A stretch of DNA of 64,000 nucleotides. Source: an uncultured Alphaproteobacteria bacterium (lineage in GTDB: Bacteria > Pseudomonadota > Alphaproteobacteria > Methylaequorales > Methylaequoraceae). Where the stretch lies: contig CACACI010000004.1 of the NCBI GenBank assembly GCA_902530985.1, positions 2,339 to 66,338 of the forward strand, in the 5' to 3' direction. A program made the position numbers and the translations under genes. A model generated the notes under the pieces. That model worked only from the letters and a program-made list of their open reading frames with translations. It was not told the origin of the DNA and did not search any database. This document shows positions 45,903-53,060 of this stretch, piece after piece (position 1 is the stretch's first letter; every line of letters begins with the position of its first letter).

Positions 45903-46657
45903 TGAGAGACAAATACCAATCGATAAGAAGAATTATCAAATTCCAGGAATTTGAATCCAAATTCGTTAAAATCTTCTAGTTTATCTATACTCTGAATTTT
46001 ATTTACTATGATAAACCTTGCCATCGCTCCTCTTAGTTTCTTTATGACCATTCCAATACCTGATAAATTATTACCTATTTTCTTTTTAAAATCAAAGTTT
46101 ACTATTTGACTTTCTAATTCTGAGTTTTTAATTACTGAAGCATACTCATTAGATGCCAAGTTGAATAAATATTTAGATTTAGTCTTTTTAATGTCATTAT
46201 TAAGTTTAGTTGTTACTTTTTTACCCCAATAATTATAAAGATCTTCTCCCAGTATATTATTCATTTTTGTACCCATTTCTAATCTATAGGGCTCAATCAG
46301 ATCTGATGGCTTTAATATTCCATACAAACCAGACAAAATTCTGAGATTTTTCTCAGCGTACACTAGAGATCGATTGTTCATTGATCTTATTAACAAGCCA
46401 TTAAATGTATCACCAGAAAAAATAAATCCTGCCTGTTTCATCATGTTATTTTTTTTATTTATATCTTTATATCTCTCAAAATTAAGTTTTGCTAATGAAT
46501 CACTTATATTCATAAGAGACTTAATTTCTTTTTTATCAAGAGTTTTGATTTTTTTTATTAAGCATTTAACCTCAGAGGAGAAATAAGGAATTGTCTCTTC
46601 CAGCGGAATATCTTCAGTTTTTAAATTGAGGTTTTTAGATGGAGAAATAATAATCAT
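45899..46657 (-). CDS. yaaA: peroxide stress protein YaaA (UPF0246)
   Basis: ISPSK, RILSGLYG, YRLEMGT, NLASNEY, KKLRG. Confidence 0.9.
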   Translation of the reverse strand: MIIISPSKNLNLKTEDIPLEETIPYFSSEVKCLIKKIKTLDKKEIKSLMNISDSLAKLNFERYKDINKKNNMMKQAGFIFSGDTFNGLLIRSMNNRSLVYAEKNLRILSGLYGILKPSDLIEPYRLEMGTKMNNILGEDLYNYWGKKVTTKLNNDIKKTKSKYLFNLASNEYASVIKNSELESQIVNFDFKKKIGNNLSGIGMVIKKLRGAMARFIIVNKIQSIDKLEDFNEFGFKFLEFDNSSYRLVFVSQ

Positions 46658-46697
46658 ATATCTATGATATAATAAAATAAAAAAAAAATTAAATATA

Positions 46698-47168
46698 TTA
46701 TTTAATCATAGCCCATTGACCACTTTTTTCTCTACAGGCTGTTCCAAATGAATTTGATGTCTCACTTCCTTTTAAATAAATATTTTCTATCAACCTGCAT
46801 TCCGGCGACCCAAAATAACCCCTAATTTTGATAACACCTTTGTTTCCGCTTTTTGGATTATTCCAGTAGCCTGAATCAACCGATATATTATTATCATTAA
46901 TTTCAAGAACTCTTAAAGTTTCTTGTTTGAAAAAATAATAATCATCTTGATTTATAAAATCAATTAAATAGGAACCAATTACTGCTCCCAAAGTAGATCC
47001 AATAGTTGTAGATAATAAGTCTCCATCTCCAAGTTGATAACCAAAATAACCTCCAACTGCAGTAGAAGAAGTTTTCATTACTGAAGATTTATCAATATTC
47101 ATTGATGAACATGATGTTAAAAAAGAAAAAAATAACACCAAAGCAATAATTCTAAAATTATTCTTCAT
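46698..47168 (-). CDS. 17-kDa antigen-like lipoprotein
   Basis: Lipobox LTSC, degenerate glycine zipper, WNNPKSGNKG, CR...GTACREKSGQW. Confidence 0.78.
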   Translation of the reverse strand: MKNNFRIIALVLFFSFLTSCSSMNIDKSSVMKTSSTAVGGYFGYQLGDGDLLSTTIGSTLGAVIGSYLIDFINQDDYYFFKQETLRVLEINDNNISVDSGYWNNPKSGNKGVIKIRGYFGSPECRLIENIYLKGSETSNSFGTACREKSGQWAMIK

Positions 47169-47631
47169 AATACCTATTTAATATGTAATTTCTGTTATTT
47201 GTGTTTATTATTGAATTTGAAAAATTTTTATTATTTCTCAGTTCTATAGCTTTAGATGAATATTTTTTATTTATTAATTTTTTTTTTAAATTGTTGTAAT
47301 AATTTATTTCTTCAACTTTTTGATTAACATTTATAATATTCGCAGAATGCTTATCTAAAATGTAACTTTTCTTATAAGCAAGAGGAGAAAGTTTTTCATT
47401 TATACTTGGTGTAAATCCAAGTGGTTCTAAAAAACCAGTATCATGTAGTTTTCGAATCACATAACCTATAGATCCAGCTAGTGTTGCATACTGTAATGTG
47501 TAACTTAGACTCCTAGTTTTAGGGTTTTCTATACCTGCAGCTCCTTCACTACCAAATACTTCACTAAAAGTATTACTCATTGATGATGAAGACCAAAAAA
47601 GAAGTACAATAAATGTTATTTTTCTTAGCAT
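47158..47631 (-). CDS. hypothetical exported protein
   Basis: Signal-peptide-like N-terminus; overlaps the downstream lipoprotein gene. Confidence 0.6.
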   Translation of the reverse strand: MLRKITFIVLLFWSSSSMSNTFSEVFGSEGAAGIENPKTRSLSYTLQYATLAGSIGYVIRKLHDTGFLEPLGFTPSINEKLSPLAYKKSYILDKHSANIINVNQKVEEINYYNNLKKKLINKKYSSKAIELRNNKNFSNSIINTNNRNYILNRYYEE

Positions 47632-47671
47632 TTCATATTTAAACGACTTAAAAAATATTTGTTTAGATTTG

Positions 47672-47962
47672 TCAGAAACTTTCTAATTCCTCGATAAGCA
47701 ATAACTGCTCTTGTAAAGGCAAACTTCTAAAATATCCTGCAGGGACACTTTTCCTTTGATTATCGTAAAACTTTTCAACCAACTCTCTTTTAAATTCATA
47801 AGTGTTAGAGCGTTCAATAGAAGTATCAAAATACTGGTCTGCCACAAAACCTGCACCTATTCCAAGAAGTGAAAGTTCAAAAAGATTTAAAGCCTCAGAT
47901 TTTTTTGCTGTAAAAGCCGTTAACACGAGCAGAATTGATATAAATATCTTTAAATTAAACAT
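47672..47962 (-). CDS. hypothetical exported protein
   Basis: Signal peptide (…SEA) then a GIGAG hydrophobic helix; start re-called to ATG 47962. Confidence 0.6.
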   Translation of the reverse strand: MFNLKIFISILLVLTAFTAKKSEALNLFELSLLGIGAGFVADQYFDTSIERSNTYEFKRELVEKFYDNQRKSVPAGYFRSLPLQEQLLLIEELESF

Positions 47963-47991
47963 AAGTCCACACAATACCTTACATTAAGGTA

Positions 47992-48019
47992 ATTATGAAG
48001 AAATTACATTTTTTTTCAA
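47992..48019 (-). promoter_or_regulatory. candidate sigma70 promoter TTGAAA-N16-CATAAT
   Basis: Read on the minus strand upstream of the 47962-46698 gene trio; weak evidence in AT-rich DNA. Confidence 0.35.
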
Positions 48020-48027
48020 CTAACTTT

Positions 48028-49062
48028 TTAAAAACTATATTGCCATCCAAGAGTAAGTTTATAATTTTCCTTCATTTGGATACCTCTATATTGTTTATAA
48101 ACAGGAAATATACCTTCTATTCCAAGCCTATGATTTTTTAAAAACTCATTATAATTTATAAAATTAACTCCAAAACCAAAGTTTAATTTTTGATGCCCTC
48201 TATTTCTTGCGTCCATAGCTGGGCTCATTCTAGGGTTCATCTCATTATCTGAACCTTCCATTTTATTTTGATAATTGTAATTAATTTTGATAGATGTACT
48301 TATATTGTCACGCCACCTGAAGGAAGACCATATAGTTGCATCAAAATTATCTCCATATTCATAATTTTTTGAATTTTTTCCTGATGCAGATGTCTTAAAA
48401 TAAAATTGCTCACCAAACTTAAGTCTTCCATAAGAATTAACATTATTAACAAAAAAGAAAGGATCAACAGTTCCTGTTCCATTTTGCATAGCGTAACCTA
48501 ATCTAGCATTTGTAGATGCAGGAGTGTTATCTCTTTCATCGATACTTCCAGTTGGCAAACTCAACCCAACGCCTATATGAGTTTTTGTATAATCATTTTG
48601 AAATATTCTAAATAATCCTGATATTCTTGTATCTCCAATACCAGAGGAATTTACATCAAACCTTGCGCCCCCAGACATTCGCATTCTTTGTTGTGTCATC
48701 TCTTTCTCTAGATAACTAGTCATTATCATTATTGTAATATTATCCTTAAGAGCATACATAGCTCCAAACATATGCATATCCATTTTCATTGATATGGGTG
48801 AATTCATGTATCCACCTAATCCATTAGATGCACCATTAGGTGCTGAAGTCACTTCATCAATACCTAATGACTTTGTTCCGTTCATGACATTATTCATTAA
48901 CATATGCCCAAAACGATATGAAAACATTACTTCTCCTTTTTTATGCATATGATCGCCCATTAAAGATATTGGACCATGACTGTCAGCTAAATGCAGCTCA
49001 GAAGATTTAGAATGATTCGAGTTAAAAAAAATTATTAATATGATGATTAAGTTAAACATCAT
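48028..49062 (-). CDS. His/Met-rich outer-membrane beta-barrel 'transporter' (putative metal uptake)
   Basis: Signal peptide, HLADSHGPISLMGDHMHKKG, MKMDMHMFGAM, GIGD, GLSLPTGSID, amphipathic strands, C-terminal GWQYSF. Confidence 0.75.
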   Translation of the reverse strand: MMFNLIIILIIFFNSNHSKSSELHLADSHGPISLMGDHMHKKGEVMFSYRFGHMLMNNVMNGTKSLGIDEVTSAPNGASNGLGGYMNSPISMKMDMHMFGAMYALKDNITIMIMTSYLEKEMTQQRMRMSGGARFDVNSSGIGDTRISGLFRIFQNDYTKTHIGVGLSLPTGSIDERDNTPASTNARLGYAMQNGTGTVDPFFFVNNVNSYGRLKFGEQFYFKTSASGKNSKNYEYGDNFDATIWSSFRWRDNISTSIKINYNYQNKMEGSDNEMNPRMSPAMDARNRGHQKLNFGFGVNFINYNEFLKNHRLGIEGIFPVYKQYRGIQMKENYKLTLGWQYSF

Positions 49063-49110
49063 TTATCCTTTCAAAAGTTATTATTAAAATTTAGGAAAGA
49101 AATAAAGATG
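49057..49110 (-). promoter_or_regulatory. anti-Shine-Dalgarno hairpin linking the leader ORF 3' end to the downstream SD/start
   Basis: mRNA 5' arm CAUCUUUAUUUCUUUC (49110-49095) can pair with GAAAGGAUAAAUGAUG (49072-49057): 15 pairs, one G-U, two single bulges. Confidence 0.6.
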
Positions 49111-49426
49111 GTGGAGAATTTGAATTTTGTTCAATTAATTTATTTTTTGTTATTATATAACTTTTATTATTTCTTAAGATTCTATAGTCTTTATATATCG
49201 AAAAGATAAATTCATTTCCATTTATCATTCTGTCTGCTAAGCAACTATAAAAACATTTAAACTCAGATTTTTCAGAATCATCATCTGATGAACTACAAAT
49301 ATTGCTGCTGTCAATCTTAGTTGTATTTAATTCCATAAAATAACTCGGACTTATAAAAAAAAGATAGGCTAAAACTAAACACAAAGATTTAAAAAATAGA
49401 TTTTTTATGCAAATATGTAAAAACAT
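49091..49426 (-). CDS. DUF2946/CutF/CruR-like leader protein
   Basis: N-terminal hydrophobic segment, IC, CFYSC (CxxxC), C-terminal NSNSPP five residues before the stop. Confidence 0.65.
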   Translation of the reverse strand: MFLHICIKNLFFKSLCLVLAYLFFISPSYFMELNTTKIDSSNICSSSDDDSEKSEFKCFYSCLADRMINGNEFIFSIYKDYRILRNNKSYIITKNKLIEQNSNSPPSLFLS

Positions 49427-49483
49427 GAAACTAAAGTAAAGTCACAATAAAGTTTAATAAATAATTCAAGTATATCAAATCAT

Positions 49484-50206
49484 TTAAATTTTAAAGTGAA
49501 TTTTTTTATTACTGTTATATTCAAAAAAATATGTCCATCCATATATTGAAACTAAATTATATTTATTTTTTTTAAAGAATTTATAAATCTGATTTTTAAC
49601 AGGTGGACAGTCTAAATCATGTATTTCAATTGAAACAAGTAAAGGGCAAAATCTTTTAATATTAAAACCTCTTAATACATTCATCTCATAACCCTCTACA
49701 TCAATATTAAGATAATCGATTCTATTAACATTATTTTCGATAAGAACTTGATCTAGTGTTTTTTGTTGTATTTCATGTATTTCAGGCTTTTTATTAACAC
49801 TTTTAGATGTATAATTCTTAAAATTTTTGTCAACAGTATTCATTGTACAATTTTCGTAAAATATGAATGATTTTACTACTTCTTCTTTTGAACCTATAGA
49901 AAAATTTAAGTTTAAATCATTTGGTCTAAAAAAGTTATAAAGTTTAATACATCGTTCTGATATATCAAAATTAATCCCTTTCCAACCTTTTTTATGAAGA
50001 TTATAAGTTAAAGAATTAATCTTTGGCTGATTGCAACCAACATCAATATAAAAACCTTTTTTTTGATCAATAAAATAATTATTTACAAATAAATCTTCAC
50101 CAAAACTATTTGCATAAGATTTTAATGGTTTAAAGAAGATATTATGCAAAATGTTAAATATAAATGTACTTTTAATCTTCTTTCTTATTCTTTTAAAAGT
50201 ATTCAT
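49484..50206 (-). CDS. FkbM-family methyltransferase
   Basis: GEDL, GFYIDVGC, GWKGIN, LNIDVEGYE. Confidence 0.88.
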   Translation of the reverse strand: MNTFKRIRKKIKSTFIFNILHNIFFKPLKSYANSFGEDLFVNNYFIDQKKGFYIDVGCNQPKINSLTYNLHKKGWKGINFDISERCIKLYNFFRPNDLNLNFSIGSKEEVVKSFIFYENCTMNTVDKNFKNYTSKSVNKKPEIHEIQQKTLDQVLIENNVNRIDYLNIDVEGYEMNVLRGFNIKRFCPLLVSIEIHDLDCPPVKNQIYKFFKKNKYNLVSIYGWTYFFEYNSNKKIHFKI

Positions 50207-50237
50207 CTTATTAACAAATTAATCATTCTTGTTCTTT

Positions 50238-50314
50238 TGGTAGCGGAGGAGGGACTTGAACCCCCGACACGCGGATTATGATTCCGCTGCTCTAACCACC
50301 TGAGCTACTCCGCC
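50238..50314 (-). tRNA. tRNA-Met(CAT), elongator type
   Basis: Reverse complement GGCGGAGTAGCTCAGGTGGTTAGAGCAGCGGAATCATAATCCGCG...GTTCAAGTCC...CTCCGCTACCA; anticodon CAT. Confidence 0.93.
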
Positions 50315-50514
50315 TTTTTTAAAAAAGAATAAATACACTTTTTTGCTGCAAGTATATGATGCTTCCTCTTTAAATATGGTATGGATGTTACTAAAAAAAC
50401 TTTCATATTCAAGAATTAGATTAATTTATTTAGATCAGTTTTTTTGAAAAAAAAATATTAACAGTTAAGTTGTAGTTATTTTTTTTAATATTTGTTAACA
50501 ACTATCATCTATAA

Positions 50515-51459
50515 TTATAAAAGTAATTTATTTTTAGAATATGATTTTATAAAAGCCTTCTTTAGTCCATTCAATTCATTTACTTTTGGAGCAGATTTAC
50601 ATGTATGATTTGATCCCATAAAGAAAAGACTAATTAAAAAAAATAATCTTGAGATTTTTGGGAAATAAAAGAATTTTTTTCCAAGACAAAAAAAGTCATT
50701 AAAATAACCATGAATTATTTTTCTTTCATTTTCATTGAAATAATTCTTATATTTTTCATAGCTATTTTTTACAAAACCAATTCTATTAAGCACGTAACAA
50801 ATATTCAATAATTTTATATACCTCTGCTTATCATCCTCAAAAATCTTATCCTCTGGATTTTTTAAATATAAAAGATCCCCTCCCCAGACTTGACATAAAA
50901 GGGTTTCATAATGACATAATCCGGCTAAAACAAAATTATTTTCTAACATCACTCTGTTTATTAAACTAAAGCCATTGCCTTCAATATCATTTTTCTCATT
51001 CCCTTGAAAACTAAATTCAACTTTTAAACATATCAAACTGTTTTTTAAAGTTTTTTTCATTCCTTTAAGAATGTCATTTTCACTTCCTTCAACATCTATT
51101 TTAATAATATCAGGAGCTTCGATTATTTTTTTATTAACGAGGTTGTCTATCGTTTCTGTTTTTACAAATGTTTTATTAACTTTAGATTCTTTAAAAAGTT
51201 TTCTGTATTTAAGAGAACTACATGTCGTATAATTAAAAAACTTTTTCTTGGAAACACTGTTAGAAATAGCATAGTCAAAAATTTTAATAGATTTGTTTTT
51301 ACTGTATTTTTTCTTTAATTTTTTATATTCATTTTGATTGGGTTCAAACAAATACACATTTGATTTATGAAAGTCCGTTATTGGTTCAAAAAGATATTCT
51401 AATCCACCAGCAGCTCCAATATCAACAATATTAATATTTTTACTCATTTTAATGCACAA
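50515..51459 (-). CDS. FkbM-family methyltransferase
   Basis: IVDIGAAGG, FEPN, IKIDVEGSE; real start probably ATG 51447. Confidence 0.85.
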   Translation of the reverse strand: MCIKMSKNINIVDIGAAGGLEYLFEPITDFHKSNVYLFEPNQNEYKKLKKKYSKNKSIKIFDYAISNSVSKKKFFNYTTCSSLKYRKLFKESKVNKTFVKTETIDNLVNKKIIEAPDIIKIDVEGSENDILKGMKKTLKNSLICLKVEFSFQGNEKNDIEGNGFSLINRVMLENNFVLAGLCHYETLLCQVWGGDLLYLKNPEDKIFEDDKQRYIKLLNICYVLNRIGFVKNSYEKYKNYFNENERKIIHGYFNDFFCLGKKFFYFPKISRLFFLISLFFMGSNHTCKSAPKVNELNGLKKAFIKSYSKNKLLL

Positions 51460-51716
51460 TTTTTATGTTTAAAAAGCAATTATTTGGAATTTAAATTAAA
51501 ACTAATGTTAATTAAAATATACATAGTTACAAGCGTATAGTTAAATTTTTAATTTATGAAAAATTGATTAATAATAAAATAAATAATTTCTAATATTTAT
51601 TTTCTTAATCATTAATTTGAAGAAACTTAATTTAAGAAAACATAAGATTGAATTATTTTTAATAGTATTTAAAGAATTTTTAATATATAAAAAAGTGAAA
51701 ATAATTAATCATTGAA

Positions 51717-53060
51717 ATGGAAAATAGTCAAAAGTTTTCTAAATATTGTTTGAGATCTACTCTCATTTTAGCAATTTTACTTATAGTGTATATGATTGTT
51801 AGAAGAGATTTTAGTCAGGCAACTACGGCTGAATTTATTCAATTTATATTATATTACATAGTCCCAGTGATCTCATTTTCTGCGATTTGTGTGGTAATTT
51901 CTTTTGTTAAAAAACCGGTTCAACTAACTTCTTTAATTTATATATCCTCCATTTTGTTTGCAGTTTTTTCTGCAGAATTTTATTTACAATACATTACTAT
52001 TGACATTGTTTCAAAGATCAAAGAATCAGCAAAAGAAAGAAAAATTAATCCAGATTTAAGGACCATTAAGCAAGTGGTTGAGCAACATTCCACAAAAAAT
52101 AACGAAGCTTACCCTTTTTATAAATTAGCAAATGAGTATAAAGGTATACTTCCATTAGGTTTAATTCCTAATAAACTCACTGTTTATTGTAATGAAATTG
52201 GTGAGTATTTAATTTTTAAATCTGATCGTCATGGGTTTAATAATCCAGATTCAATTTGGAATAAAAAGAAAGTTGATTTTGTTGCTTTAGGAGATTCTTT
52301 CACCCATGGAGCATGCATTCCCAATAATAAGGGCTATGTAAATCTAATTCGCGAGAATGGAAGACAAATTATTAACTTAGGAATTGGAGGCAATAATCCT
52401 TTCTCTAATTTAGCTACAATTGTTGAGTATGTCTTAATAAAAAAACCAAAAATTATCTTATGGTTCCATTTTTCAGGAAATGATCTAGCTGGGATGATGA
52501 CTGATACGAATCATAAAACTTTTATCAGATATATAAAACAAAAAGAATTCTCTCAAAATCTATTTAATAGGTCCGATGAAATTGAGATTAAAATGCTTTC
52601 ATCCTATAAAGAAAATAAAAATAAAATCTTTGAAGCAGATGAAAAAACTGTTTTTCAAAAGTTTAATATAATACATTTAATTAAACTACATTATTTAAGG
52701 ACAGCATTTGGGCAAAGTAGAAACTTAGATGGAGATTTTGATTTTAATGTTTTTGAAGACATTATGAGGAAGGCGAGAGATTTGGCAGATAAAATTGGAA
52801 GTGAAATTTATTTTATTAATATCCCCACTCTTCAACAAGCCTACATATATGAATCTGACCCTAATAGAAGAAAAACATATGAAATAATAAAAAAACTAGA
52901 TATTAAATGGCTTGATTTAAGTAACAAAATCATTAATCATAATGATCCAAGTTCGTTATATGCTTATCGTAATAAAGGAGGTCATTTTAGTGAAAAAGGT
53001 AATGAATTTACAGCAATGCAGGTATTGAAAATGATCGAGTTTTATGAAAAACAGGAATAA
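51717..53060 (+). CDS. membrane-anchored SGNH/GDSL-fold protein
   Basis: Three N-terminal TM segments, GDSFTHG, NLGIGG, GND, GHFS. Confidence 0.75.
   Translation: MENSQKFSKYCLRSTLILAILLIVYMIVRRDFSQATTAEFIQFILYYIVPVISFSAICVVISFVKKPVQLTSLIYISSILFAVFSAEFYLQYITIDIVSKIKESAKERKINPDLRTIKQVVEQHSTKNNEAYPFYKLANEYKGILPLGLIPNKLTVYCNEIGEYLIFKSDRHGFNNPDSIWNKKKVDFVALGDSFTHGACIPNNKGYVNLIRENGRQIINLGIGGNNPFSNLATIVEYVLIKKPKIILWFHFSGNDLAGMMTDTNHKTFIRYIKQKEFSQNLFNRSDEIEIKMLSSYKENKNKIFEADEKTVFQKFNIIHLIKLHYLRTAFGQSRNLDGDFDFNVFEDIMRKARDLADKIGSEIYFINIPTLQQAYIYESDPNRRKTYEIIKKLDIKWLDLSNKIINHNDPSSLYAYRNKGGHFSEKGNEFTAMQVLKMIEFYEKQE

Follow-up and report, generated by a model that had tools for sequence, protein, structure and literature searches.

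What does a small open reading frame (ORF) with three cysteines and a proline pair near its end do directly ahead of a gene for an outer-membrane barrel? The question is raised by a locus in an uncultured alphaproteobacterium (assembly GCA_902530985.1, contig CACACI010000004.1), in a stretch of 64,000 nucleotides that we call the window. The ORF (49426-49091, minus strand) encodes 111 amino acids and ends in a TAA stop codon (49093-49091); after 28 nt the barrel gene begins on the same strand. Two experimental models offer a precedent. CruR and CutF are recently discovered copper-sensing arrest leaders (PMC9426467, PMC9973294). CruR is protein Bp2923 of Bordetella pertussis and the prototype of the Pfam family DUF2946, PF11162 (Roy et al. 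2022, PMC9426467); CutF is the leader of the cutFOG operon of Rhodobacter capsulatus (Ozturk et al. 2023, PMC9973294; 10.1101/2025.02.05.636593).

By analogy with these systems, we consider it probable that the 111-residue ORF is a cis-acting regulatory leader of the CutF/CruR type and not a stand-alone enzyme or chaperone. What we observe is its conservation, architecture and synteny, the fold of the barrel, and a genomic copper context. The ORF list, synteny and a profile family together define the leader gene (49091-49426) as one for a putative exported or anchored protein with three cysteines, an NSPP motif and a tail of five residues. The first-pass annotation had described an ORF of this length with an Ile-Cys dipeptide, a CFYSC motif and an NSNSPP-SLFLS end, 28 bp before the barrel ATG, and each of these elements is present in the sequence where it was placed.

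The protein opens with a charged and hydrophobic segment (residues 1-30, 49337-49426) that Kyte-Doolittle analysis and a helix in the AlphaFold2 (AF2) model predict to be a Sec signal or membrane anchor. Hydrophobicity peaks after two lysines, in the 15-residue window that starts at residue 11 (Kyte-Doolittle mean 2.2). A 15-mer with a mean of at least 1.8 and a Lys or Arg before it is common to 54 of 59 members of the leader family; the first-pass annotation had called the N-terminus export-like. Next comes a conserved cysteine triad, N-I-C44-S followed by C58-F-Y-S-C62 (C58-x3-C62; 49241-49297), a putative metal-binding sensor. The C-terminal end reads L-I-E-Q-N-S-N-S-P105-P106-SLFLS, with the proline pair five residues from the terminus. 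Conservation and the codon table mark the stretch from I98 to P106, I-E-Q-N-S-N-S-P-P (49109-49135), as a putative arrest peptide; its two prolines are encoded by CCA CCA (49114-49109). The five variable tail codons and the TAA (49091-49108) supply most of the 5' arm (49110-49095) of a hairpin in the minimum-free-energy fold.

The leader is a single-copy gene in the genome to which the window belongs. In public records it is called as an 81-residue protein that begins at M31 (49336) instead of M1 (49426). This start is probably mis-set, because the M31 form omits the hydrophobic N-terminus common to all homologues. The window leader matches nothing in Pfam (E<=1) or NCBIfam, and a word-index homologue search with its sequence returned only itself, as the 81-residue gene call. 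The AF2 model (predicted local distance difference test, pLDDT, 73; predicted template modelling score, pTM, 0.39) has a helix over residues 2-35 and then two more helices, one of them bearing the CxxxC motif. A promoter-like pair (TTGATA, 16 nt, TAAACT; 9 of 12 consensus matches; 49451-49478, minus strand) sits in the 57-nt gap between a gene for an FkbM-type methyltransferase and the leader. It is a candidate only, because the region has fewer such sites than its shuffles.

Is the leader conserved, and if so, which parts of it? Of 61 related genomes searched, 30 have the barrel; within the same family, with the window's own genome left out, it is present in 27 of 36. At all 28 same-family loci surveyed, an ORF of 94-119 residues lies on the same strand, 24-135 nt 5' of the barrel. 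Among 30 further named records of metagenome-assembled genomes (MAGs) or single-amplified genomes (L061-L090), the leader is intact in 29. The first-pass annotation had set the loss of the cysteine motif and the xPP end from homologous loci as the result that would count against it; both were kept, in 28 of 28 same-family loci and 29 of 30 named records. The remaining record, the long-read-polished MAG L089, has its leader split over two frames (L089:2680-2990, plus strand), with the cysteines in one half and ...KIEPKSNSPPKYLI in the other; the cause is a frameshift or else a mistake in the assembly.

A profile built from 24 leaders was searched against 1.84 billion representative sequences and found 71 cluster representatives of 47-122 residues, 70 of them besides the window's own. 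An xSPP-type motif with a short tail is present in 63 of the 70 (NSPP in 51, QSPP in four, HSPP in three, TSPP in two, and NAPP, NYPP and RSPP in one each), and the seven that lack it look truncated or frameshifted. In the alignment of the 24 leaders M1, C44, C58, P105 and P106 are invariant, and C62, I98 and S104 are conserved in at least 90%. An alignment of 59 sequences gives the same overall picture, with C44 invariant and C58 and C62 at 90% or more. The consensus end of the family is I-E-P-K-S-N-S-P-P, which can be generalized as I-x-x-(K/R)-x-N-S-P-P.

Outside these positions little is kept. Identity to the window copy is 17-32% for the leaders, compared with 49-77% for the barrels beside them. 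Mean column identity in the leader alignments is 25-30%, and conservation is confined to the three cysteines and the last nine or so residues before the tail. The sequence of the linker that joins CxxxC to xSPP is free, but its length hardly changes: 27 of 28 loci have 40-43 residues there, and 55 of the 70 representatives have 40-44. The tail after the proline pair varies from one to seven residues and has no fixed sequence. CxxxC itself occurs in 27 of the 28 loci; the exception, L016, has CxxC. All four proline codons are used at both P105 and P106, and four serine codons at S104. This synonymous variation indicates that selection acts on the peptide and not on the RNA. Conserved cysteines and a conserved end, joined by a free linker of fixed length, fit a putative nascent-chain sensor.

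At these same-family loci and named records the leader always comes first, ahead of the barrel. The gene on its 5' side differs from locus to locus (FkbM-like, binding-protein-like and other ORFs), so leader and barrel travel as a two-gene unit. Scans around the leader-barrel pairs of other taxa found mostly unrelated neighbours (CBS, GST, MFS, a sigma factor and a two-component system), and the pair therefore behaves as a self-contained unit there as well.

What is the gene that the leader precedes? The barrel ORF (48028-49062, minus strand) encodes 344 amino acids; its start is the ATG at 49062, and another ATG follows at 49059. AF2, given a 59-sequence alignment, models it with high confidence (pLDDT 93.4) as 12 long strands. 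AF2 and the homologues make it a Met-rich outer-membrane barrel of the COG4313/Phenol_MetA_deg type and a candidate copper channel. The cargo had been proposed to be a barrel of about 340 residues that is not TonB-dependent, and the confident COG4313-type model agrees. The best solved match is 4RL8, Pput2725 of Pseudomonas putida F1 (E = 4e-17; template modelling scores 0.60/0.75; PMC4493636), followed by FapF. Although Pput2725 shares the COG4313 channel fold, it is only 13% identical in sequence to the window barrel. COG4313 channels are implicated in the uptake of hydrophobic molecules, and PMC4493636 makes no mention of copper; the window's subfamily, by contrast, has many invariant Met and His residues and a copper-type genomic context. 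The window barrel has no match in Pfam at E<=1 and none in NCBIfam. Some close relatives among its 1349 homologues carry a precomputed PF13557 match, and with the cut-off at 22 bits the barrels of L029, L030 and L105 reach 23-25 bits.

The barrel had also been described as rich in both His and Met. It is clearly rich in Met (25 residues, 7.3%, compared with 2.1% across 45 long window ORFs), but the claim for His was overstated: with ten residues (2.9% compared with 1.6%), its enrichment is moderate. It contains no Cys. In the alignment of 59 barrels from three phyla, a conserved His/Met-rich segment (residues 22-62, ...ADSHGPISLMGDHMHKK...; 48877-48999, minus strand) runs before and into the first strand, and residues 19-44 are non-strand in the AF2 model. 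Positions D27, H29, P31, I32, M35, H38, H40, M46, M54 and M56 are invariant or conserved in at least 90%. Also invariant or nearly so, across Alphaproteobacteria, Cyanobacteria, Bacteroidota and others, are M92, M94, M96, H97, M98, M102, M114, M122 and M192. Ligands that are mostly Met with some His suit the coordination of Cu(I). Among the papers listed by a literature search, none ties the PF13557/COG4313/MetA-pathway barrel family to copper by its title or abstract. PcuB of Bradyrhizobium japonicum was considered as a known counterpart of the barrel and ruled out, since it is a TonB-dependent receptor (PMC12617631).

The barrel family also provides the decisive link between the NSPP leaders and DUF2946. 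We examined 50 barrel loci for upstream leader ORFs. In GC-rich Alphaproteobacteria, whose barrels are among the distant homologues (31-40% identical), canonical DUF2946/RAPP ORFs stand 5' of the barrel. Such RAPP leaders occur at L030/L049 (PF11162, 29.7 bits against a cut-off of 23.7), L094, L116, L125 and L131. The barrel is thus a cargo shared by the two kinds of leader. At nine Bacteroidota loci the upstream ORF encodes 123-138 residues with the pattern LCINK...C-x-GKC and a proline-rich end. Five of these end in SPPTPPPKC or SPPTPPPQC (L096, L122, L132, L136 and L137), two in TPPPK (L119 and L129) and two in HPP (L139 and L140). A hydrophobic N-terminus begins the seven of the first two groups, which have 124-138 residues and are all on the plus strand (L096:2535-2927, L119:2512-2928, L122:2539-2937, L129:2465-2842, L132:2553-2927, L136:2499-2873 and L137:2552-2926). 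The one that was scanned, L096, has no Pfam match. Judged by their sequences, these ORFs are a third type of leader before the same family of barrels.

Can the order in which these leaders arose be read from the barrels? In the barrel tree the AT-rich clade is well supported (Shimodaira-Hasegawa-like approximate likelihood-ratio test, SH-aLRT, 99); 31 rows were put in the NSPP group by similarity alone, without upstream DNA. Because the tree is unrooted and its deep nodes are weak, descent of the NSPP leaders from RAPP leaders cannot be read from it. Cyanobacterial members of the barrel family open as ORFs of 402-468 residues, about 60-120 residues longer at the N-terminus (L093:2755-3963, L098:2683-3972, L105:2602-4008 and L114:2698-3975, all on the plus strand).

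Several genomes place the barrel among copper genes. In the GC-rich alphaproteobacterium L030 it is the C-terminal half of a 520-residue fusion with a PCuAC domain (120.8 bits; L030:1483-3045, minus strand). A DUF2946/RAPP ORF precedes the fusion (L030:3256-3723, minus strand) and SCO1/SenC follows it (L030:798-1385, minus strand). At L029 the barrel adjoins COX1. In a Phaeomarinobacter MAG (L097:15-4011, plus strand) it comes after genes for a TonB-dependent receptor and a PepSY_TM protein on the same strand, a combination usual in CruR operons; the contig stops short of the place where a leader would lie. The window's genome encodes PCuAC, SCO1, COX1, Rho, EF-P and three TonB-dependent receptors. 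From this context and the conserved ligands we infer that the barrel is a small outer-membrane channel for copper entry that serves the assembly of cuproenzymes.

How might the leader control such a channel? We propose that its hydrophobic N-terminus would target the nascent chain to the Sec translocon, and that the C44/C58-x3-C62 triad would detect a thiophilic metal (copper is the likeliest) before the ribosome has released the chain. The end motif, I-x-x-(K/R)-x-N-S-P-P, would slow or arrest peptide-bond formation. Since a constant 40-43 residues separate the triad from the motif that follows it, the triad would stand just outside the ribosome exit tunnel at the moment of arrest. The length of the pause would then set the output of the next gene. 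The barrel, in turn, would be a Met-lined, TonB-independent entry for copper, feeding the PCuAC/SCO1/cytochrome-oxidase pathway of the genome. Since the cargo is read as an uptake channel, the sign of regulation is expected to be that of CruR, with expression when copper is scarce and shut-off once copper is bound. Export, metal binding, arrest, coupling and the sign of regulation are all steps that we infer.

For the coupling step two routes can be envisaged. In the first, a ribosome paused at P105/P106 would cover the 5' arm of the hairpin and so free the Shine-Dalgarno (SD) sequence and start codon of the barrel, in the geometry of CutF and SecM. The minimum-free-energy fold of 49135-49030 pairs 49110-49095 (the end of the last proline-pair codon and the tail) with 49072-49057. 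This 3' arm (minus strand) holds a strong SD sequence, GAAAGGA (49072-49066), and both barrel ATGs. Masking of the SD by the leader tail is weakly predicted by such folding. A duplex test on 22 non-redundant loci, with the proline codons held fixed, found complementarity between the post-PP sequence and the SD at p<0.05 in seven loci and p<0.2 in 11 (binomial p = 0.0016). Within the window's genus, L003 has a perfect 10-nt complement and L010 a duplex of -17.3 kcal/mol. At L021, L023 and L024 the proline codons, CCUCCU, exactly complement the barrel's AGGAGG SD, some 40 nt downstream of them; the match may come from the encoding of two prolines, or it may belong to the switch. The second route would be Rho-dependent polarity. 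CruR acts through Rho (PMC9426467), Rho is encoded in the window's genome, and the DNA is 28% GC. A terminator scan found no intrinsic terminator between leader and barrel, and the sole Rfam match in 46000-52000 was a tRNA; known cis-regulatory RNAs were absent. We rank SD unmasking modestly ahead of Rho.

How close does the leader come to its proposed relatives? It shares with CruR the position of a small first gene, a signal-like N-terminus and, as cargo, an outer-membrane uptake gene, here a putative one. As in DUF2946 proteins, a semi-conserved first cysteine ((V/I)-I-C-T there, N-I-C-S here) is followed by a two-cysteine motif, a fixed spacer, an xxPP motif and a tail of a few residues. 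The differences are equally plain. DUF2946 proteins have CxxC (C-P-x-C) where the NSPP leaders have CxxxC, and the Arg-containing RAPP where these have the Arg-less NSPP. In DUF2946, CXXC and RAPP lie 45 residues apart, and an insertion of five residues impaired copper control (PMC9426467). The spacer is 45 residues in CruR, 44-52 (mostly 46) in 20 alphaproteobacterial DUF2946 proteins and 40-43 in the NSPP leaders. The principle of conserved spacing thus holds in the NSPP family, at a different value. The intergenic gap is 162 nt for CruR and 28 nt here, and the cargo is a TonB-dependent transporter there and a 12-stranded COG4313-type barrel here.

CutF also resembles the leader. It has a Sec-type N-terminus, such as is predicted here, and both have CxxxC, a proline motif among the final 15 residues, a short gap to the next gene and a predicted stem over the SD of that gene; here the stem is weak and not conserved family-wide. 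[quoted passage not shown] The N-terminal signal-like segment, another of these filters, is predicted here from hydrophobicity and the AF2 helix. CutF differs in its end, where a run of PPP is accompanied by basic residues, and in controlling a copper-induced periplasmic multicopper oxidase, a detoxification enzyme. The cargo here is a probable uptake channel, so regulation of the opposite sign to that of CutF is expected. Within its main text, as distinct from figures and supplements, PMC9973294 does not contain the terms 'PF13557', 'phenol', 'porin', 'Pelagibacter' or 'SAR11'. SecM and the RAPP arrest peptides are likewise exported nascent chains in which a C-terminal proline motif arrests translation to control the next gene's ribosome-binding site (10.1101/2025.02.05.636593). 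They differ in sensing export capacity rather than metal and in their motif, Arg-Ala-(Pro/Gly)-Pro (10.1101/2025.02.05.636593).

A number of observations weigh against reading the ORF as a leader of this kind, and we gather them here. The first concern its ancestry. The first-pass annotation had called it a streamlined variant of CutF and CruR; architecture, synteny and the CutF-like filters uphold this, whereas no sequence relation to DUF2946 emerged. The hidden Markov model of PF11162 matches none of 24 leader homologues at E<=10. The comparison by hhalign of the leader family with the 20 canonical alphaproteobacterial DUF2946 proteins gives a probability of 0.4%, with NICSS and VICTG the only stretch aligned. 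No RAPP end occurs among the 71 profile hits, and no sequence with RAPP or PPP was reached. A six-frame search of the window's genome with PF11162 had no match, although 33 of 151 genomes in the class contain the family. Because no homology is detectable, the word 'variant' rests on architecture and synteny. The motif is atypical as well, being without the Arg and Ala of RAPP, and arrest by NSPP is putative.

The second set of contrary observations concerns coupling. The hairpin of the window (-9.5 kcal/mol) has a z-score of -0.51, and 54 of 200 shuffles fold equally well. In a 240-nt context the SD is 0.63 paired, and blocking off a ribosome footprint reduces this by little, to 0.58. A local model leaves the SD 0.38 unpaired with the native 5' part and 0.41 unpaired with shuffled sequence (Wilcoxon p = 0.50). 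Taken over the whole family, neither of these two models convincingly shows the SD being freed. The duplex test gives p = 0.088 for the window, and 0.38 without the proline codons. L005, L015, L016, L077 and L078 have no complementarity between the post-PP sequence and the SD. Three further points stand beside these. A leader is not indispensable to the barrel, since at the 33 cyanobacterial loci in the set of 50 no Cys/PP ORF precedes it. The copper context of the barrel is taken from other genomes, and no copper gene adjoins the pair in the window. Finally, the AF2 model of the leader is of moderate confidence and may describe a small folded protein.

This last point leads to the strongest competing explanation. 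Might the small protein be the working partner of the barrel, that is, an anchored or periplasmic cysteine metal chaperone, a plug or a gate, in which NSPP is a structural or interaction motif? The leader-barrel pair is strictly conserved, as are the three cysteines; AF2 gives two helices after the signal, one with CxxxC; and CutF was itself initially taken for a chaperone (PMC9426467). We nonetheless think a partner unlikely. A folded binding partner would be expected to show conservation distributed over its core, but almost nothing beyond the cysteines and the last nine residues is conserved, and the linker is free. The pTM of the model is only 0.39, the residues after the proline pair vary in both sequence and length (1-7), and elsewhere DUF2946 leaders precede the same family of barrels.

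A different objection accepts an arrest leader and questions the signal. With the same architecture it might sense the thiol-redox state or disulfide-forming capacity of the periplasm, Sec export load, or zinc, nickel or cadmium. There is precedent in the literature: His-only CutF-like clusters lie beside HupE/UreJ genes (PMC9973294), and the release of CutF is tied to disulfide formation (10.1101/2025.02.05.636593). The window pair, moreover, has no adjoining copper gene. The conserved ligands of the barrel, however, are mostly Met with some His, and other genomes fuse or link the barrel to PCuAC, SCO1, COX1 and DUF2946. A non-copper signal therefore seems to us distinctly improbable. The remaining explanation, a chance ORF in AT-rich DNA or a conserved RNA element in place of a peptide, could appeal to the shorter 81-residue public gene call and the lack of a Pfam or NCBIfam match, but it is effectively refuted by a reading frame that stays open at all 28 same-family loci and in 29 of the 30 named records, and by amino acids that are kept while their codons vary synonymously; nor does any Rfam family match the region.

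We return, then, to a probable regulatory leader, which is best filed as a variant of the CutF/CruR kind that is unrecognizable by sequence and has a new class of cargo; its mechanism is not categorically new.

The surroundings of the pair in the window can be described briefly. Upstream of the leader, a tRNA gene (RF00005, 63 bits; 50241-50314, minus strand) lies between two FkbM-type methyltransferase-like ORFs. Three small ORFs with the look of exported proteins (100, 157 and 156 residues) follow the barrel on the same strand (46698-47974, minus). The third has weak matches to 17-kDa-antigen/glycine-zipper lipoproteins and overlaps the second by 11 nt. A promoter-like site (48019-47992; 10 of 12 matches) lies between the barrel and these ORFs.

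What would these leaders mean for copper biology? The DUF2946 model and profile-profile comparison both miss the NSPP family, so HMM-based censuses may undercount the mechanism. The NSPP leaders form a family in uncultured AT-rich marine Alphaproteobacteria that has the same anatomy with an Arg-less motif. More tentatively, and with less confidence than we place in the leader itself, it is possible that Met-lined COG4313-type barrels are a widespread TonB-independent family for copper uptake. They would be governed by mutually unrecognizable nascent-chain sensors in three lineages: RAPP in GC-rich Alphaproteobacteria, NSPP in AT-rich marine Alphaproteobacteria and SPPTPPPKC in Bacteroidota. 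NSPP would then be a new class of arrest motif. If the barrels are governed in this way, abundant streamlined marine bacteria would tune the entry of copper through arrested translation rather than with a transcription factor. The outer-membrane step in supplying copper to cytochrome oxidase is poorly understood, according to a 2025 study of Caulobacter (PMC12617631). A barrel family found behind three kinds of leader, and once fused to PCuAC, offers a specific candidate for a small channel that would carry copper across the outer membrane, and is perhaps the more useful lead.

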